A stretch of 64,000 bases of DNA, from positions 1 through 64,000 of IMG/VR virus record IMGVR_UViG_3300028394_000001; one strand, written 5' to 3'. A program made the translations under genes and the position numbers. The notes below the pieces were generated by a model. That model did no database searches. It was not told the DNA's origin and saw nothing but the letters and a program-made list of their open reading frames with translations. Within the stretch, counting starts at the first letter, position 1. Each line of letters begins with the position of its first letter. Below are positions 38,735 to 47,004 of the stretch, piece after piece. Source of the stretch: a virus.

Positions 38735-39113
38735 AGTAACTTTAACACAACCAGACGATTTTCTAAAAGTAAGAGAGACATTGACCAGAATTGGTGTTGC
38801 TTCGAAGAAGGACAAAACTTTATTCCAGTCTTGCCATATCTTACATAAACAAGGCAAATACTATATTGTACACTTTAAAGAATTGTTTGCACTTGACGGG
38901 AAACCGACAGATTTATCTGAAAATGATTTATCCCGTAGGAACGCCATTGCACTCCTATTAGAAGATTGGGGTTTAGTCAAGATTGTTAATGAAGCACAAG
39001 TACAACAACCTGAACCAATTTTTATTTCGCAAATCAAAATATTGTCACACAAAGAGAAGAATGAATGGCAATTAACACCTAAGTATAACATAGGCACTAA
39101 AAAGAAAATATAA
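38709..39113 (+). CDS. regA: Translational repressor
   Basis: DFLKVRETLTRIGVAS, CHILHKQGKYYIVHFKELF. Confidence 0.97.
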   Translation: MIGIQDLVEVTLTQPDDFLKVRETLTRIGVASKKDKTLFQSCHILHKQGKYYIVHFKELFALDGKPTDLSENDLSRRNAIALLLEDWGLVKIVNEAQVQQPEPIFISQIKILSHKEKNEWQLTPKYNIGTKKKI

Positions 39114-39505
39114 TGTCATATTCAAGCAAGGTTATAGACCATTACGAAAATCCAAGAAATGTTGGAAAATTTGTAGTTGATGATTCCATAGGAACAGGAA
39201 TGGTAGGCGCTCCTGCGTGTGGAGATGTGATGAAACTACAAATAAAAGTGGAAGATGGAATAATTACCGATGCTAAATTTAAAACATATGGATGCGGATC
39301 GGCGATTGCAAGCAGTAGTCTCGTCACTGAGATGGTTAAGGGACTCACTCTGGCACAAGCCGGAGAAATCAAAAATAATAGAATTGCGGCTGAGCTCGCC
39401 CTCCCTCCTGTCAAAATTCATTGCTCTATCCTTGCAGAAGATGCGGTCAGAGCAGCCATTAACGACTATCAAGGAAAACATGATAAACTTAACTGCCAGT
39501 GCTAA
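39113..39505 (+). CDS. iscU: Fe-S cluster scaffold
   Basis: DHYENPRNVG, APACGD, YGCGSAIASSS, LPPVKIHC. Confidence 0.96.
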   Translation: MSYSSKVIDHYENPRNVGKFVVDDSIGTGMVGAPACGDVMKLQIKVEDGIITDAKFKTYGCGSAIASSSLVTEMVKGLTLAQAGEIKNNRIAAELALPPVKIHCSILAEDAVRAAINDYQGKHDKLNCQC

Positions 39506-39791
39506 AGAACAAATAACAGAAATTCTTATGGATGAAGATGCTTCTTATGTGAGAGCTTTCATTTCAGGTGGTGGTTGTTCTGGTTTCAATTACGGTTTTA
39601 CTTTAGAAAGCCAAAAAGAAGAAGATGATATTTTGGTTGAAGACAATTTTATAATTGATGCACTAAGCATGCAACATTTTCTTGGTGCCACAATAGATTA
39701 TACAAGAGACAAATTAAAAGGTTCACAATTTGTTATAAAAAATCCAAATGCGAAAACAACTTGTGGTTGTGGAAGTAGTTTCAGCGTATAA
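39480..39791 (+). CDS. erpA: A-type Fe-S carrier (ErpA/IscA)
   Basis: GGGCSGFNYGF, NPNAKTTCGCGSSF; AAGGA SD before ATG 39480. Confidence 0.88.
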   Translation: MINLTASAKEQITEILMDEDASYVRAFISGGGCSGFNYGFTLESQKEEDDILVEDNFIIDALSMQHFLGATIDYTRDKLKGSQFVIKNPNAKTTCGCGSSFSV

Positions 39792-42320: not shown

Positions 42321-42340
42321 TATGAACAAATGGGGTGCCT

Positions 42341-42859
42341 ATGTATTTGAAGATTGTTGGTTGTCCTGATGAGAACTTCAAACCTTATCTAAAAAAGGCC
42401 GCCCACTTCTTCGCTAAAAATTTGTTCTCACCGCAATTATCTCCACACATTTACGTTCTGGTTAAGTTTGATAAAACATTAGATAGTCATGGAAGTTGTG
42501 AAGTTGCTGATTATGAAACAAGTAGAAAACCTAGAGAGTTTCTAATCAACATGAAACCAGGAATTGGTGCACCAGCTTTGTTTAGAACACTGGCTCATGA
42601 AATGGTCCATGTGAAACAATTTGCATATCAACATACGAATGCTTCTTTGAGTGTTTGGCATAAGAAAGAAATTGATTCGGATAATTTAGATTACTGGTTT
42701 CATCCGTGGGAGATAGAAGCATATGGTTTGGAAACAAGCCTTGTAACAAAATTTTCAGTTGAAGAAAAGTTGTGGGAAATCTTTGAAGAATTTAAAAATC
42801 CAGAAGAACCTGCAAAATATGAAGAAATAAAGTGGAAAACTTTAGAAACCACTAAATAA
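42341..42859 (+). CDS. Zn-metallopeptidase-like protein
   Basis: LAHEMVHVKQ...PWEIEA. Confidence 0.75.
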   Translation: MYLKIVGCPDENFKPYLKKAAHFFAKNLFSPQLSPHIYVLVKFDKTLDSHGSCEVADYETSRKPREFLINMKPGIGAPALFRTLAHEMVHVKQFAYQHTNASLSVWHKKEIDSDNLDYWFHPWEIEAYGLETSLVTKFSVEEKLWEIFEEFKNPEEPAKYEEIKWKTLETTK

Positions 42860-42902
42860 GTTGTATATATAGAGTTATAGTTAAATCTTTTTTGGAGTTA
42901 TA

Positions 42903-43010
42903 GTGTCTCAGTTTCTCAAGTCCTTATCGTCAGCCTGTGAGTATCGCACACCGTTTATTGGTAGCGATAATCAACCATGGGCGCATCTAGGGGGTTGTGG
43001 AGGACGATAA
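42903..43010 (+). CDS. Putative attenuator leader peptide, 35 aa (MSQFLKSLSSACEYRTPFIGSDNQPWAHLGGCGGR)
   Basis: GGAG SD at 42894-42897, GTG start, tandem TAA TAG stops; its 3' end overlaps the antiterminator strand. Confidence 0.65.
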   Translation: MSQFLKSLSSACEYRTPFIGSDNQPWAHLGGCGGR

Positions 43011-43039
43011 TAGAGTAAGAAAACTAAATCAGAATTCAC

Positions 43040-43069
43040 AAACCTCACCCTAAAAAAGTGGGGTTTTTT
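43040..43069 (+). terminator. Intrinsic terminator (attenuator) upstream of the tRNA array
   Basis: AAACCTCAC/GTGGGGTTT stem and a T6 tract. Confidence 0.8.
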
Positions 43070-43092
43070 GTTGTTCCAATACAACAAATGTG

Positions 43093-43121
43093 TTGACAGA
43101 AGCATCGACTTCTGTTACACT
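43093..43121 (+). promoter_or_regulatory. sigma70-type promoter P1 of the tRNA array
   Basis: TTGACA-17 nt-TACACT. Confidence 0.8.
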
Positions 43122-43147
43122 AGGTTCTTCGGTTGAGAAATCAATCA

Positions 43148-43175
43148 TGTTCTTTAAAAAGTAAGTGTAATTTGT
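43148..43175 (+). promoter_or_regulatory. rrn boxA-like antitermination leader 1
   Basis: TGTTCTTTAAAAA followed by TAAGTGTAATTTGT, shared with leader 2. Confidence 0.65.
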
Positions 43176-43249
43176 TGGGGCATTGTGTAGTGATAGCACA
43201 GGAGACTTTGAATCTCTTAGTCTAGGTTTGATTCCTAGTGCCCCTGCCA
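43176..43249 (+). tRNA. tRNA-Gln(TTG)
   Basis: Loop CTTTGAA; GCCA end. Confidence 0.88.
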
Positions 43250-43391
43250 TATTGAAACATATTTTAAAATCCAGTAACTTTCTAGCACGTCCGGCCGGCA
43301 ATCTAGAAAGCAACCCGTAGAGGGGTAAGAGTCGAAAGAGTGATGGATAATCGGCGGTGAGAATCCGCAGAAAGTGTGTTTCAATATGGTA
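43245..43391 (+). ncRNA. Long-stem T-loop RNA B1 (Y RNA/YrlA-like)
   Basis: TGCCATATTGAAACATAT pairs with GTGTGTTTCAATATGGTA; internal GCGG-TGAGAAT-CCGC. Confidence 0.6.
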
Positions 43392-43438
43392 ATGTTATCT
43401 GCAGGTAGCATCCATACTGGGGAGTAATTGCCCTCAGG

Positions 43439-43518
43439 AACTCGTAGTCTTCTAGTGGTAAGAAGCCCCATTAAAGGGGTGAACACAGGTTCGATTCCTG
43501 TCTACAATGAGTTTGCTA
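43439..43518 (+). ncRNA. tRNA-like element with a truncated anticodon arm
   Basis: Canonical D and T arms; anticodon arm CCCC-ATTAAA-GGGG; bulged acceptor; ends GCTA. Confidence 0.6.
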
Positions 43519-43616
43519 TATAAGAACACATTGCATGCCTGACCGAAAAAGTCGTGGTAAACTACAAGAGAAAGAGGTTCGAATCCTCGGGACTGGTAGT
43601 GTGTTCCTATATGGTA
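43514..43616 (+). ncRNA. Long-stem T-loop RNA B2
   Basis: TGCTATATAAGAACACAT pairs with GTGTGTTCCTATATGGTA; internal GAGG-TTCGAAT-CCTC. Confidence 0.6.
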
Positions 43617-43623
43617 AAATTTA

Positions 43624-43715
43624 GGAAGATGATGCAGCTGGGATGGTCCGGCGACTAGCCTTGAAAACTAGGTTCTCAGAAATGGGATGGGGTTCGACTC
43701 CTCCGTCTTCCGCCA
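43624..43715 (+). tRNA. tRNA-Ser(TGA), 8/4 fold
   Basis: 8-bp acceptor GGAAGATG/CGTCTTCC; 4-bp T stem; loop CTTGAAA; G73. Confidence 0.82.
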
Positions 43716-43721
43716 AAAATT

Positions 43722-43808
43722 GGAGAGTGGGCTGGATGGTAAGGCACCGGATTGCTAATCCGACGCTCCGAAAGGGGCGAGTGGGTTCGACTCCCACACT
43801 CTCCGCCA
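43722..43808 (+). tRNA. tRNA-Ser(GCT)
   Basis: Loop TTGCTAA; long variable arm. Confidence 0.92.
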
Positions 43809-43813
43809 AATTT

Positions 43814-43891
43814 GTACAGATGGCCGAGCGGTCCAAGGCAACAGTCTGCAAAACTGTAAAACCGTGGGTTCAAATCCCACTCTGTACTCCA
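43814..43891 (+). tRNA. tRNA-Cys(GCA)
   Basis: Loop CTGCAAA; U73. Confidence 0.93.
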
Positions 43892-43927
43892 GTATGTTGT
43901 TTTTTTACAACAATGTACCGAAAAGTG

Positions 43928-43955
43928 TTGACAAAGTGTGTGGTTGTGTTATACT
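43928..43955 (+). promoter_or_regulatory. sigma70-type promoter P2 of the tRNA array
   Basis: TTGACA-16 nt-TATACT. Confidence 0.75.
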
Positions 43956-43965
43956 CCATGCATGA

Positions 43966-44023
43966 GTTGAGAAAGTCATCGAACTTCTCAACAAGGCTCA
44001 TTAAAAAAATAAGTGTAATTTGT
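43966..44023 (+). promoter_or_regulatory. boxB-like hairpin plus boxA-like leader 2
   Basis: GTTGAGAA...TTCTCAAC hairpin; GGCTCATTAAAAA; TAAGTGTAATTTGT. Confidence 0.6.
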
Positions 44024-44098
44024 GCTCCCGTCGTCTACTGGCTAGGACGCTGCCCTTTCAAGGCGGAGAAGACGGATCGAAACCGTTCGGGAGTACCA
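44024..44098 (+). tRNA. tRNA-Glu(TTC)
   Basis: Loop CTTTCAA; variant T loop ATCGAAA. Confidence 0.9.
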
Positions 44099-44178
44099 TA
44101 GATAAACGCATTACCTCATAAGCCTGTCGGTGAAAACTGCTGTTACGCTTTTTGAGACTGGTGTGTTTTTCTATGGTA
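44094..44178 (+). ncRNA. Long-stem RNA B3
   Basis: TACCATAGATAAACGCAT pairs with GTGTGTTTTTCTATGGTA. Confidence 0.58.
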
Positions 44179-44187
44179 GTGTTATTT

Positions 44188-44262
44188 GGGGGTATAACTT
44201 AACGGCTAAAGTAGTAGGCTTTTAACCTATTAATCAGAGTTCGATTCTCTGTGCCCCTACCA
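44188..44262 (+). tRNA. tRNA-Lys(TTT)
   Basis: GTAGG-CTTTTAA-CCTAT. Confidence 0.93.
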
Positions 44263-44270
44263 AGAATTTT

Positions 44271-44347
44271 GCCCTGGTGATGGAATTGGTATACATACTG
44301 GTCTTAGAAACCAGGTTCTGGGAGTTCAAGTCTCCCCTAGGGCACCA
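44271..44347 (+). tRNA. tRNA-Leu(TAG), short variable loop
   Basis: Loop CTTAGAA; variable region GTTCT. Confidence 0.87.
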
Positions 44348-44353
44348 AATTTA

Positions 44354-44428
44354 GGCTCGTTCATATAATGGCTATTATCGCGGATTGTCTATCCGTAGAT
44401 GGGAGTTCGATTCTCCCACGAGTCGCCA
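44354..44428 (+). tRNA. tRNA-Asp(GTC)
   Basis: Loop TTGTCTA; G73. Confidence 0.9.
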
Positions 44429-44437
44429 AGTTAGTAT

Positions 44438-44511
44438 TCTTTCGTAGCTCAATGGTAGAGCAATCGGCTGATAACCGATAGACAAAAGTTCAATTCTTTT
44501 CGAAAGAACCA
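44438..44511 (+). tRNA. tRNA-Ile(GAT)
   Basis: Loop CTGATAA. Confidence 0.9.
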
Positions 44512-44517
44512 AGATAT

Positions 44518-44603
44518 GGAGTAGACGCCTGAGAGGAAGGGCACCCGGCTGTAACCCGGAGGTCAGTAATGCTGTAGAGGTTCGAACCCTCTCTGCTCCA
44601 CCA
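44518..44603 (+). tRNA. tRNA-Tyr(GTA)
   Basis: Loop CTGTAAC; long variable arm. Confidence 0.88.
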
Positions 44604-44790
44604 ATCTCGTTACTACTTTCGTTAAAGTAGCGTTTGATTAGCGATAGAGATCCGGTGGCAGAAGACCGTTAGTGAGGAGAACCCTCTGAATCTGATAGGC
44701 AGTATTCCTCTGCACACAGACGTTAGAATAAAAGGAATGGACAGAGTAACTGCTCAATCAAGGGCTGGCGTAGAACCCAGTAGCTTGTAC
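44604..44790 (+). ncRNA. Unidentified structured RNA between tRNA-Tyr and tRNA-Ala
   Basis: Multiple hairpins; no credible ORF. Confidence 0.45.
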
Positions 44791-44796
44791 TTATTT

Positions 44797-44871
44797 GGGC
44801 TGTTAGTGCTAATGGTAACACATCTGGTTTGCAACCAGAAATTAAGAGTTCGATTCTCTTACGGTCCACCA
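44797..44871 (+). tRNA. tRNA-Ala(TGC)
   Basis: Loop TTTGCAA; G3:U70. Confidence 0.93.
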
Positions 44872-44878
44872 AGTTTTT

Positions 44879-44952
44879 GCCCTATTAGTATAATGGTATT
44901 ACACCTGTTTTGTAATCAGGTTACGGCAGTTCGATTCTGTCATGGGGCACCA
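44879..44952 (+). tRNA. tRNA-Thr(TGT)
   Basis: Loop TTTGTAA. Confidence 0.9.
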
Positions 44953-44960
44953 AGTTTTAT

Positions 44961-45026
44961 GCAGACGTTTTTTAACAATAGAGGGGTCCACCCTTTATCT
45001 ACGCGGAAACCGTAGTGTCTGCTCCA
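44961..45026 (+). ncRNA. D-armless tRNA-like RNA ending in UCCA
   Basis: Acceptor GCAGACG/TGTCTGC; central hairpin; 5-bp/7-nt T-like arm. Confidence 0.65.
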
Positions 45027-45031
45027 GTTTT

Positions 45032-45105
45032 CTCGGTATGGTGAAATGGTATCACTCATGGTTTGGGACCATGGAGCGAAGGTTCGATTCCTTCTACCGA
45101 GACCA
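45032..45105 (+). tRNA. tRNA-Pro(TGG)
   Basis: Loop TTTGGGA. Confidence 0.92.
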
Positions 45106-45110
45106 ATTTT

Positions 45111-45180
45111 TAGGATGCGTTCAGCAAATTTTATACATTGAACTTTTAATTCAAACCGTAAAAAAGCATCCTGTTGTTTT
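45111..45180 (+). ncRNA. CAGCAA-scaffold RNA A1 carrying a Lys(UUU) anticodon stem-loop mimic
   Basis: AGGATGC/GCATCCT stem; GTTCAGCAA; TTGAA-CTTTTAA-TTCAA. Confidence 0.7.
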
Positions 45181-45182
45181 AT

Positions 45183-45257
45183 TCCCTTGTAGCTCAGCGG
45201 TAGAGTAGGTGACTGTTAATCATTTGGTCCGTGGTTCGATCCCACGCAGGGGAGCCA
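45183..45257 (+). tRNA. tRNA-Asn(GTT)
   Basis: Loop CTGTTAA; G73. Confidence 0.93.
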
Positions 45258-45261
45258 GTTT

Positions 45262-45330
45262 TAGAGTAGGTTCAGCAAACATAAAGCTAACTTTTGGATG
45301 TCTAGCGACAAAAACTACTCTGTTATTTTT
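45262..45330 (+). ncRNA. CAGCAA-scaffold RNA A2
   Basis: AGAGTAG/CTACTCT stem; GTTCAGCAA; GTTATTTT tail. Confidence 0.7.
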
Positions 45331-45331
45331 A

Positions 45332-45406
45332 GGTCATATGACGTAGACGGATGCGTAGCGGTCTCATAAGCCGACGAGAGTGGCTCGGTACCACTTATGA
45401 CCACCA
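45332..45406 (+). tRNA. tRNA-CAT (Met or Ile2), atypical T loop
   Basis: Loop CTCATAA; T loop CTCGGTA. Confidence 0.8.
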
Positions 45407-45410
45407 ATTT

Positions 45411-45485
45411 CGGTCCTTAGTAAAATGGATATTACACTAGGCTACGAACTTAGGAGTGGGAGTTCGATTCTCTCAGGACCGGCCA
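45411..45485 (+). tRNA. tRNA-Arg(ACG)
   Basis: Loop CTACGAA. Confidence 0.9.
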
Positions 45486-45503
45486 ATTTTAGGAGCATTA
45501 AAT

Positions 45504-45701
45504 ATGAGTGATGGTGGTAAAGGTTCTTCACCAAGACCGTTCAGTGTCGCTGATGAAGAATATGCAAAAAGATGGGACATGATTTTTAGTCGTGACCTGG
45601 AAGAAGTGAAAGAAGTAAATATCTCGGTAGCTCAATTGGCAGAGCAGCGGCCTCCAAAGCCGAAGGTTGAGGGTTCAACTCCTTCTCGGGGTGCCAATTA
45701 A
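45504..45701 (+). CDS. Small GKGSxPRP-type phage protein; its 3' part overlaps tRNA-Trp
   Basis: AGGAG SD; MSDGGKGSSPRPFSV...RWDMIF. Confidence 0.55.
   Translation: MSDGGKGSSPRPFSVADEEYAKRWDMIFSRDLEEVKEVNISVAQLAEQRPPKPKVEGSTPSRGAN
45621..45696 (+). tRNA. tRNA-Trp(CCA)
   Basis: Loop CTCCAAA; G73. Confidence 0.92.
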
Positions 45702-45716
45702 AAAAGGTGGTGTAAT

Positions 45717-46205
45717 ATGAAAGATTTTGATATTGAAAAAGTGAAGCAATTCATTGTGAATCAAGGACCAGATACTAAAATCTATCTTGGTGCCGATTCA
45801 GAAAGATTGCGTGTTGATGGCGTATGGTATGCAGATTACGCATTAGCTGTTGTTGTTCATATTGATGGCCGCCACGGTTGTAAAATCTTTGGTTTCGTAA
45901 ACCGTGAATTAGATTACGACCACAAGAAAAGCAAACCTGCTATGCGACTGATGACAGAAGTTTATAAAGTTTCAGAATTGTTCCAAGCAATGTCTGATGT
46001 ACTTGAAGACCGCCACGTTGAAGTTCATTTGGACTTGAACAAATCAGTTGAACACGGAAGTTCTTGTGTTGTGCAGCAAGCGATTGGTTATATCAAAGGT
46101 ACATGTAATGTGACACCAATGGTTAAACCTGATGCACCTGCAGCAAGTTTCTGTGCAGATAGGTTGAAACGTATTTTGGCTGAACAAGAATTGGCCGAAG
46201 CGTAA
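45717..46205 (+). CDS. RNase H-like YkuK/DUF458-type protein
   Basis: IYLGADS, RLMTEV, EVHLDLN, KPDAPAASFCAD. Confidence 0.8.
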   Translation: MKDFDIEKVKQFIVNQGPDTKIYLGADSERLRVDGVWYADYALAVVVHIDGRHGCKIFGFVNRELDYDHKKSKPAMRLMTEVYKVSELFQAMSDVLEDRHVEVHLDLNKSVEHGSSCVVQQAIGYIKGTCNVTPMVKPDAPAASFCADRLKRILAEQELAEA

Positions 46206-46211
46206 GAAAAT

Positions 46212-46286
46212 GCGGGTATGGTGCTAGTGGTAACACAAGACCTTGCCAAGGTTTAGTTGAGAGTTCGATTCTCTCTACCCGCTCCA
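46212..46286 (+). tRNA. tRNA-Gly(GCC)
   Basis: Loop TTGCCAA; U73. Confidence 0.93.
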
Positions 46287-46308
46287 AATTCTCCAAAGTT
46301 TACTTTGG

Positions 46309-46385
46309 GGTGACTATAGTGTAACGGTTTAGCACACCACTCTGTGAAAGTGGTAGAATGGGCTCGTCTCCCATTAGTCACCCCA
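46309..46385 (+). tRNA. tRNA-His(GTG)
   Basis: G-1:C73; loop CTGTGAA; T loop CTCGTCT. Confidence 0.87.
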
Positions 46386-46395
46386 AAGTAAATTT

Positions 46396-46470
46396 GCCTT
46401 GTTAACTCAGCGGTAGAGTAACTCTTTTACACGGAGAAGGTCGGCGGTTCAATCCCGTCACAAGGTACCA
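46396..46470 (+). tRNA. tRNA-Val(TAC)
   Basis: Loop TTTACAC. Confidence 0.92.
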
Positions 46471-46519
46471 AATATCGCCTTTGTTGACGGCGTACAATGA
46501 GATAAATTGTCAACAACTT

Positions 46520-46593
46520 GCTCTTATAGTATAATGGCATTACACGTCCTTGGTAAGGATGAAACACAAGTTCAATTCTTGTTAAGAGCACCA
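46520..46593 (+). tRNA. tRNA-Thr(GGT)
   Basis: Loop TTGGTAA. Confidence 0.9.
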
Positions 46594-46599
46594 AATTTT

Positions 46600-46675
46600 G
46601 CAACTTTAGCTGATGTGGTCATAGCGGTGGTCTGAAGAACCATTGAAAGAGGTTCGATTCCTCTAGGTTGCACCA
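46600..46675 (+). tRNA. tRNA-Phe(GAA)
   Basis: Loop CTGAAGA. Confidence 0.9.
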
Positions 46676-46679
46676 ACAT

Positions 46680-46771
46680 GCCAGCGAGACTGGGTAGTCA
46701 GAGAGGCCTTATACACCTTTTAGCGCCAGATTAGCGTTCTTGAGTGAGTTCGAATCTCACCGCTGGTACCA
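46680..46771 (+). tRNA. Non-canonical tRNA with a TAT anticodon (nominally Ile), 4-nt D loop and long variable arm
   Basis: GCCAGCG/CGCTGGT acceptor; GACT-GGGT-AGTC; loop CTTATAC; GTGAG-TTCGAAT-CTCAC; ACCA. Confidence 0.7.
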
Positions 46772-46778
46772 AATTTAT

Positions 46779-46856
46779 GCCCCCGTGGACAAATTGGCAA
46801 AGTCACTTCTCTCAAAAGGAAGAATTCTCTCGGTTCAACTCCGAGCGGGGGTACCA
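46779..46856 (+). tRNA. tRNA-Leu(CAA), short variable loop
   Basis: Loop CTCAAAA; variable region AATTCT. Confidence 0.85.
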
Positions 46857-46857
46857 T

Positions 46858-46932
46858 CTCTCTATAGTTCAATGGATAGAACACGTTCCTCCTAAGAATG
46901 AGATGCAGGTTCGATTCCTGCTGGAGAGACCA
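46858..46932 (+). tRNA. tRNA-Arg(CCT)
   Basis: Loop CTCCTAA. Confidence 0.92.
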
Positions 46933-46956
46933 AAACGGTATATTTTTTAAAAGGGC

Positions 46957-46985
46957 TTGACAAATTACACTTATTTTGATAGAAT
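46957..46985 (+). promoter_or_regulatory. sigma70-type promoter for the A3-A4-TROVE/vWA unit
   Basis: TTGACA-17 nt-TAGAAT. Confidence 0.8.
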
Positions 46986-47004
46986 ACGTTCATTGTTAGA
47001 TTTT

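Follow-up and report, generated by a model that had tools for sequence, protein, structure and literature searches.

A putative ribosome-mediated attenuator with a nearly amino-acid-complete leader peptide in front of the tRNA arrays of T4-like phages

Introduction

Why phages carry tRNA genes is a long-open question, in which the compensation of codon usage stands against the replacement of tRNAs destroyed by host defence. The locus described here raises the question of whether such an array may be under conditional control and, if so, what its switch would sense. The window—the whole stretch of DNA analysed, 64,000 nucleotides in length—is the first 64 kb of a genome of 170,520 bp present as a single contig (IMG/VR record IMGVR_UViG_3300028394_000001). 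The phage is described as a large, lake-water one and its genome is T4-like, encoding a major capsid protein, a DNA polymerase, a clamp loader, a RegA-type repressor and a late sigma factor of the gp55 type. Its relatives come from freshwater metagenomes, and a contig carrying one of the related leaders has been binned as Methylophilaceae, which is only a hint as to the host. The element in question sits downstream of a gene for 174 aa (42335-42859), of unknown function, and upstream of the tRNA array, and in a preliminary description of the window it was read as a codon-sampling leader peptide that gates the array.

Sampling of related loci

Related loci were collected in three ways, i.e. by the upstream protein, by a core DNA motif, which favours one subfamily, and by the terminator sequence alone (blind to the ORF). 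The rule used to define the leader ORF ignores composition and admits at most 55 codons; it shortened one leader (L235), the full ORF of which has 58 codons and contains all 20 amino acids.

Results

The elements found between the upstream gene and the end of the array, all of them on the plus strand, are as follows:

42864-42871, plus strand: late-promoter-like octamer, a 7/8 match to the T4 late consensus TATAAATA
42894-42897, plus strand: Shine-Dalgarno sequence GGAG, 5 nt before the GTG
42903-43010, plus strand: leader ORF of 35 codons with 18 amino acids internally, control region at about codons 7-27
42912-42927, plus strand: segment 1, candidate protector predicted to pair with segment 2 if the leader is untranslated
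42933-42982, plus strand: hairpin within the ORF, candidate RNA polymerase pause hairpin, core 42942-42947 with 42964-42969
42990-43001, plus strand: segment 2, the antiterminator 5' arm, within the last codons of the ORF
43035-43048, plus strand: segment 3, the antiterminator 3' arm (43035-43046) overlapping the terminator 5' arm (43040-43048)
43040-43069, plus strand: intrinsic terminator, GC core 43043-43048/43058-43063, U-tract 43064-43069
43070-43121, plus strand: early-type sigma70 promoter (43093-43121) with upstream palindrome (43070-43085), bypassing the putative switch in the window genome
43132-43160, plus strand: boxB-like hairpin (43132-43145) and rrn-type boxA (43149-43160)
43176-49035, plus strand: array of 28 tRNA genes (25 genes at the default ARAGORN threshold), in which all 20 amino acids are represented

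The leader ORF of the preliminary description is indeed present in the sequence, with its GGAG, a GTG start at 42903 and a TAA stop at 43008-43010. The peptide is absent from the called proteins (exact look-up) and has no match in Pfam, no Rfam family covers the leader (42860-43170) up to E=5, and blastn of the leader against cultured phages returned chance matches only. Among the relatives, the equivalent ORF, antiterminator and terminator asked for by the preliminary description are kept despite the divergence of the peptides. A leader ORF precedes all 97 distinct terminators with a tRNA gene within 600 nt, the rule being satisfied by 18% of shuffled sequences, and grouping of the 97 peptides yields 24 clusters at 60% identity, or 14 when the cut-off is 35%. 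A start signal accompanies 84 of them, 34 having a Shine-Dalgarno sequence and 50 being apparently leaderless, with neither assigned to the remaining 13. Length differences within clusters are multiples of three only, so that indels are in-frame; the other two frames are open in just 2/24 and 1/24 cluster representatives; and the stop codon lies 26-38 nt upstream of the terminator across the family, within a searched interval of 18-48 nt. It is a feature of the attenuator class, seen here too, that a short conserved ORF with a start of translation precedes an intrinsic terminator.

In the near relatives the ORF is intact in all cases, while the spacers between the tRNA genes turn over. Many other relatives keep the upstream gene and lack the leader, a different small tRNA block starting at that place, so that the leader element is optional and tied to the large array. 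In three loci (L113, L114 and L128) a short remnant of the terminator directly follows the 174-aa gene and the leader ORF has been lost. In the cultured phages DLP_6 and Cr30 the upstream gene is present as well, with no annotated tRNAs in the stretches examined.

Concerning the alternative folds, the antiterminator pairing (42990-43001/43035-43046) amounts to -14.0 kcal/mol and overlaps the terminator 5' arm, which bears out the proposed mutual exclusion of the two helices, another feature of the attenuator class. The proposed terminator is present as well (-9.3 to -9.9 kcal/mol), but its run of six T's is 43064-43069, three of which had also been counted in the 9-bp stem. In the window alone neither helix beats shuffled sequences (z -1.5 and -1.3), and both carry a G-U pair where the nearest relatives have G-C; the support for the helices therefore comes from the relatives, a single genome making only a moderate case. 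Across the family the antiterminator duplex averages -16.7 kcal/mol (z -4.6), whereas seven terminators that share the motif but close ordinary genes, with no tRNA behind them, have duplexes of -2.8 to -11.7 kcal/mol and no such ORF (Mann-Whitney P=5e-5 for tRNA-proximal versus tRNA-less terminators). When leader and terminator halves were swapped among clusters, the cognate halves paired better in 23 of the 24 (permutation P=5e-5), and the antiterminator columns exhibit G-C, A-U, C-G and U-A variants, several pair types occurring per column. By sequence comparison, the ORF, its amino acid completeness (see below), the covariation of the antiterminator and the link to tRNA arrays may be taken as established. 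Segment 1 occurs at a similar position in many relatives, and the protector duplex it would form with segment 2 is no better than shuffles (mean z -0.07).

As to what the ORF encodes, the count of 28 different codons among the 29 codons 2-30 is correct (30 distinct codons of 34 in the whole ORF), as are the five different Ser, three Leu and two each of Gln, Pro and Ala codons, while the second Arg codon is codon 35 and thus outside that stretch. The chance of 28/29, a calculation that the preliminary description had called for, is P=1.9e-4 under the codon usage of the window and 4e-3 under uniform codons, but only 1.2e-3 and 0.04 for the whole ORF, the boundary at codons 2-30 having been chosen after the fact and flattering the former values; none of 16,625 29-codon stretches of real genes reaches it. 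At the family level maximal codon diversity was rejected as a selected trait, since, given the peptide, it does not exceed uniform synonymous choice (Fisher P=0.55), 28/29 being a high draw; given the peptide, distinct codons do exceed those expected from genome usage (P=8e-8). The claim of eighteen internal amino acids, without Met and Val, holds for the window, but most of the closest relatives have Val at codon 29, and the alleged preference for GC-ending codons is half true, with G-ending codons for Glu and Gln and U-ending ones for Asp, Tyr, Phe and Ile. The family signal, as far as these comparisons indicate, is amino acid completeness together with particular non-preferred codon choices, not codon sampling.

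This completeness is widespread: 18-20 amino acids are found within 25-51 internal codons in 21 of the 24 clusters, the combined Fisher P being 9e-21 relative to windows of the proteome and 8e-13 relative to the same ORFs after nucleotide shuffling—values that, like the other family P values, are optimistic because the clusters share ancestry. It is only the 16 codons before the predicted switch that hold the diversity (13.2 amino acids versus 10.5 expected), the N-terminal ten codons having no excess (7.7 versus 7.65). Within the control region most of the amino acids are present a single time; the leaders are enriched 2-4-fold in Cys, Trp and His, and Met is the residue most often absent; singleton amino acids are not significantly more conserved than repeated ones in the family leaders (P=0.12).

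With regard to codon choice, Glu is encoded by GAG in 23/25 cases versus 16% in the genome, which holds for 21/23 different contexts and for 10/11 where the third base is unpaired, and Gln by CAG in 20/31 cases, CAG being borderline when unpaired. The phage Glu and Gln tRNAs read GAG and CAG only by wobble. In the window leader 18 of the codons 2-26 have no phage anticodon that matches them perfectly, and family-wide perfectly matched codons are fewer than expected (z -3.7). Wobble-read codons would be expected to be slower and more sensitive to tRNA shortage. A general wobble-codon rule is, nevertheless, kept only in part, TAT and GAT being confounded by their position in the hairpin stem, and AAG, CAT and TGT show no bias in the family leaders.

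One lineage has arrays of only 10-14 tRNAs, and its leaders hold 15-17 amino acids. These share a core of eight invariant residues (Tyr, His, Asn, Cys, Asp, Glu, Ser and Trp) for which most of the arrays have kept tRNAs, and a variable stretch that partly tracks the gain and loss of Gln and Ile tRNAs. It should be pointed out that the match of inventories has exceptions and represents a single event in one lineage.

The ORF-internal hairpin has a predicted stability of -18.6 kcal/mol in the window (z -2.2) and is more stable than synonymous shuffles in 20/24 clusters and than codon-order shuffles in 22/24; a Tyr codon on its 5' arm and an Asp codon on its 3' arm stand in the same frame. In the consensus scheme of attenuation a leader hairpin pauses the polymerase until a ribosome melts it, which synchronises the race between the two (PMC1183508). 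The present hairpin is a candidate for such a pause site; as it would set the start of the race, it would also explain why only codons ~7-27 are selected for completeness.

Folding with a modelled ribosome agrees, provided that the RNA behind the ribosome is kept from pairing, with the preliminary description, in which a stalled ribosome favours the antiterminator and one at the stop codon the terminator. With no ribosome, the predicted terminator probability is 0.94-0.99 in the window and 0.82 on average in the family, and with a ribosome at the stop it exceeds 0.8 in all 24 representatives. When the ribosome is placed upstream and the RNA behind it is blocked, the antiterminator is favoured in 16/24, the other 8/24 not switching at equilibrium; in the window it wins up to codon 25-28, so that 17 amino acids would lie in the sensing zone. 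In a free equilibrium model segment 2 is taken up by the RNA behind a ribosome standing in mid-ORF and termination is restored, so a clean switch requires the upstream RNA to be blocked. An illustrative race model with textbook rates gave a basal read-through of 0-28%, rising to ~25-80% with one codon 20-fold slower and to 8-98% with all codons twofold slower; in general it needs a 10-50-fold slower single codon, but only a 1.5-3-fold global slowing. These sensitivities suggest that the device would suit the near-complete loss of one tRNA or a moderate general slowing, and not a mild shortage of a single amino acid. In the literature, single regulatory codons are reported to give low sensitivity (PMC1183508, section 11), and the his attenuator can read single codons and tRNA levels (PMC4046918).

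Transcription of the leader probably starts from the octamer at 42864-42871, judging from its sequence and position, besides read-through from the upstream genes. The exact T4 late consensus TATAAATA is found at the same place in a related locus (L008) and also 5 nt before the leaderless ATG in three others (L069, L122 and L177). Upstream of the leader most relatives carry a late-type octamer, a sigma70-type promoter in a position suited to a leaderless start, or the two together; in the window only the late-like octamer was seen.

Behind the terminator, the sigma70 promoter already pointed out in the preliminary description as bypassing the switch holds for the window genome, but such a site, together with its palindrome, is absent in 12 of the 24 clusters and present in the other 12. 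In most of the promoter-less clusters the first tRNA or the boxA follows the terminator at 9-60 nt, and in all 12 the switch appears, from the sequence, to be the only gate to the array. The palindrome GTTGT-N6-ACAAC lies just upstream of the -35 box at 43070-43085 and 43896-43911 in the window and at positions 83968, 95093, 98649 and 99793 of the genome; it defines an early promoter class and is probably the operator of a phage or host regulator. The 12-mer at 43149-43160, which we take to be an rrn boxA from its consensus, has boxA-like counterparts in 17/24 clusters, 6 of which are without any promoter. In the window an rrn-type boxA preceded by a GAAA hairpin stands behind both array promoters (43149-43160 and 43996-44007). 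The motif suggests that the phage borrows host Nus antitermination for the transcription of its tRNAs.

The array itself contains further promoter-like sites at 43928, 46507 and 46957. Default ARAGORN missed a tRNA-Ser(TGA), scored as tRNA-Sec-like by Rfam (43628-43711), and a tRNA with a CAT anticodon, possibly Ile2 (45332-45406). At 43441-43509 there is a degenerate tRNA-like gene with an unclear anticodon (Rfam tRNA, 36 bits), near the equivalent position of which relatives have tRNA-Ile(TAT) or another odd tRNA. Long inverted repeats at 43247-43389, 44094-44178 and ~43518-43615 start at or near a tRNA CCA end; between their arms lie 50-105 nt of structured sequence unrelated to one another, the 3' arms forming a repeat family, and tRNA-His is bracketed by a 21-nt inverted repeat (46296-46395). 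Four small RNA-like repeats (45106-45180, 45257-45325, 47000-47140 and 47137-47204) share a head ending in CAGCAA and a matching tail, two of them directly preceding a Ro60/TROVE-like RNA-binding gene (47219-48649); an RNase H-like gene (PF04308) also lies within the array (45717-46205). Outside it, Fe-S assembly genes (IscU/NifU-like and an adjacent IscA-like ORF) occur at 39113-39791 near hsp20, and a permuted tmRNA gene at genome positions 118093-118479, the latter being found also in three related loci (L009-L011).

Among cultured phages, the Xanthomonas phage X1 (OQ427096, at about 135,560-135,740) has a late-type octamer, a leaderless 39-codon ORF, an antiterminator, a terminator and a boxA before its tRNA array, none of them annotated. 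Its leader ORF contains 19 amino acids, i.e. all but Cys. The antiterminator (-23.2 kcal/mol) has z -4.9 as a fold, but z -1.0 in the duplex-shuffle test, and the terminator has -18.7 kcal/mol. Blastn against cultured phages detected no sequence similarity between the X1 leader and that of the window. Some 270 nt of unannotated, possibly structured sequence lie between the X1 leader terminator and the boxA (L375:8690-8960).

Discussion

Based on the above results, it is likely that the element is a ribosome-mediated transcription attenuator, the output of which is the phage tRNA array, released when decoding is slow; extra tRNAs would thus probably be made under such conditions. The polymerase would enter from the late-type promoter or from upstream genes and pause at the ORF-internal hairpin until a ribosome melts it, the two then starting together. 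While the polymerase covers about 75 nt, the ribosome would read some 16-20 codons, with one for almost every amino acid. Under normal decoding it would cover segment 2, from codon ~25-28 onward, which leaves segment 3 to the 3' arm of the terminator and ends transcription; if one codon were very slow, or all of them moderately slow, segment 2 would pair with segment 3 and the polymerase would read through, meet the boxA and transcribe the array. Without translation the terminator is predicted to form. We infer translation, pausing, switching and late timing, as well as a signal that would consist in a shortage of usable tRNA, whether destroyed, unmodified or uncharged. Against this reading in the window genome stands the fact that the promoter behind the terminator and the internal promoters feed the array anyway; early constitutive tRNA synthesis with a conditional late top-up would be the simplest interpretation.

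Among known systems, the closest scheme is that of the leader-peptide attenuators trpL, hisL, pheL, leuL and thrL (PMC1183508). A short leader ORF, a hairpin within it and an exclusive choice between antiterminator and intrinsic terminator are common to both, and a slow ribosome is proposed to lead to read-through and an absence of translation to termination in the phage leader, too. Whereas the trpL/hisL class repeats the codons of one amino acid, the phage leader devotes a single codon to almost each of them, the 5' arm of its antiterminator lies within the last codons of the ORF, and its output is tRNA genes; it is moreover phage-borne, often leaderless and followed by a boxA. The element would thus work like a trp/his-type attenuator, as suggested by its structural features, but it is not of the amino-acid-operon kind, since the downstream genes are tRNA genes, not genes that make or charge an amino acid, and the leader does not repeat codons. 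The attenuators of ilvGMEDA, ilvBN and thr are multivalent, and that of pheM controls the pheST synthetase. They resemble the phage leader in that more than one amino acid is sensed (ilvGMEDA, ilvBN and thr) or that the translation machinery is controlled (pheM), but they use two or three amino acids, repeated codons and enzymes, whereas the phage leader has 18-20 amino acids and tRNAs. The T-box riboswitch (RF00230) is likewise a tRNA-responsive choice between terminator and antiterminator, which binds one uncharged tRNA directly and needs no translation; the phage leader differs from it in giving no match to the Rfam model with its Stem I, specifier loop and T-box bulge (42860-43170, up to E=5). 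Translation-stress attenuators with an upstream ORF, such as whiB7/wblC (PMC10287673), the topAI leader (10.1101/682021), bmrB (PMC4191407) and vmlR (PMC9226507), also employ a short ORF to report ribosome stalling of several causes, and whiB7 rises after tRNA cleavage by VapC5 (PMC10287673). Unlike the phage leader, they act on resistance or toxin genes, amino acid completeness is not part of their description, and several of them work via Rho or translation control. The conserved ORF hairpin, the GAG bias, the rrn-type boxA and the promoter-less clusters are newly described parts. In the literature covered, which holds few subscription journals, no published account of leader-peptide attenuation of tRNA genes was found.

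The identity of the signal is the point at which the main competing interpretation departs. The same switch might be a general sensor of translation speed or coupling, in which mixed codons average the decoding speed and which would respond to elongation-factor cleavage, ribosome damage, antibiotics, amino acid starvation or a late-infection slowdown. This is rather unlikely in our judgement, even if the race model is far more sensitive to overall slowing than to the loss of one tRNA, and the uORF attenuation of whiB7 responds to antibiotics and, probably, to tRNA cleavage (PMC10287673): a speed gauge needs no rare residues, yet Cys, Trp and His are enriched, the completeness is confined to the control region, and the lineage with reduced arrays has a reduced leader. 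A stronger proposal, to which we would give an even chance, is that the attenuator is a feedback sensor of the whole tRNA pool. It would be, so to speak, an amino acid pangram with slow, wobble-read codons that senses the destruction or depletion of almost any tRNA during infection, including that by host anticodon nucleases, and switches on the (late) transcription of replacement tRNAs, its inventory being tuned to the array. A link to anticodon-nuclease defence, as supposed in the preliminary description, may be envisaged.

That the peptide itself is a functional product or a nascent-chain arrest peptide seems quite improbable; a core of 12 residues hardly varies in clusters 0, 1 and 3, partly by ascertainment, but the residue order is reshuffled across the family, whereas the amino acid completeness and the pairing of the RNA are retained. 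The Tyr and Asp codons that keep coming back make up the two arms of the hairpin within the ORF, Pfam gives no match, and in place of the conserved, ordered C-terminal motif of arrest peptides there is a C-terminus that follows the RNA pairing. It is very improbable that an untranslated structured RNA, or a protein-controlled switch at an ordinary terminator, underlies the locus with the ORF being incidental, for although the region is structured and the exact peptide is not among the called proteins, the constancy of the ORF (97/97), its start signals, the closed other frames, the in-frame indels and the lack of an Rfam match all speak against it. Finally, the attenuator could be real in the family and vestigial in the window genome, the promoter at 43093-43121 supplying the tRNAs; the G-U pairs in both helices and the missing Val codon would fit, yet 12 clusters keep promoter and intact leader together and the ORF survives in all near relatives in spite of the turnover of the tRNA spacers, which makes this scarcely credible.

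Phage tRNAs have been reported to replace host tRNAs destroyed by defence nucleases, the rescue depending on the level of expression (PMC10264068, PMC11555353); in the accessible text of these two papers the expression of the arrays is ascribed to a strong promoter, and feedback control was not found there. An attenuator in front of the array would extend attenuation to a stable-RNA output and to the sensing of all amino acids at once, and it would put on offer a 170-nt reporter of the health of the tRNA pool, for which the cultured phage X1 provides an experimental handle. A conditional switch on the array would imply that the tRNAs serve to answer translational stress and are not a supplement supplied all the time, and the stresses that trigger read-through would tell what phage tRNAs are for.
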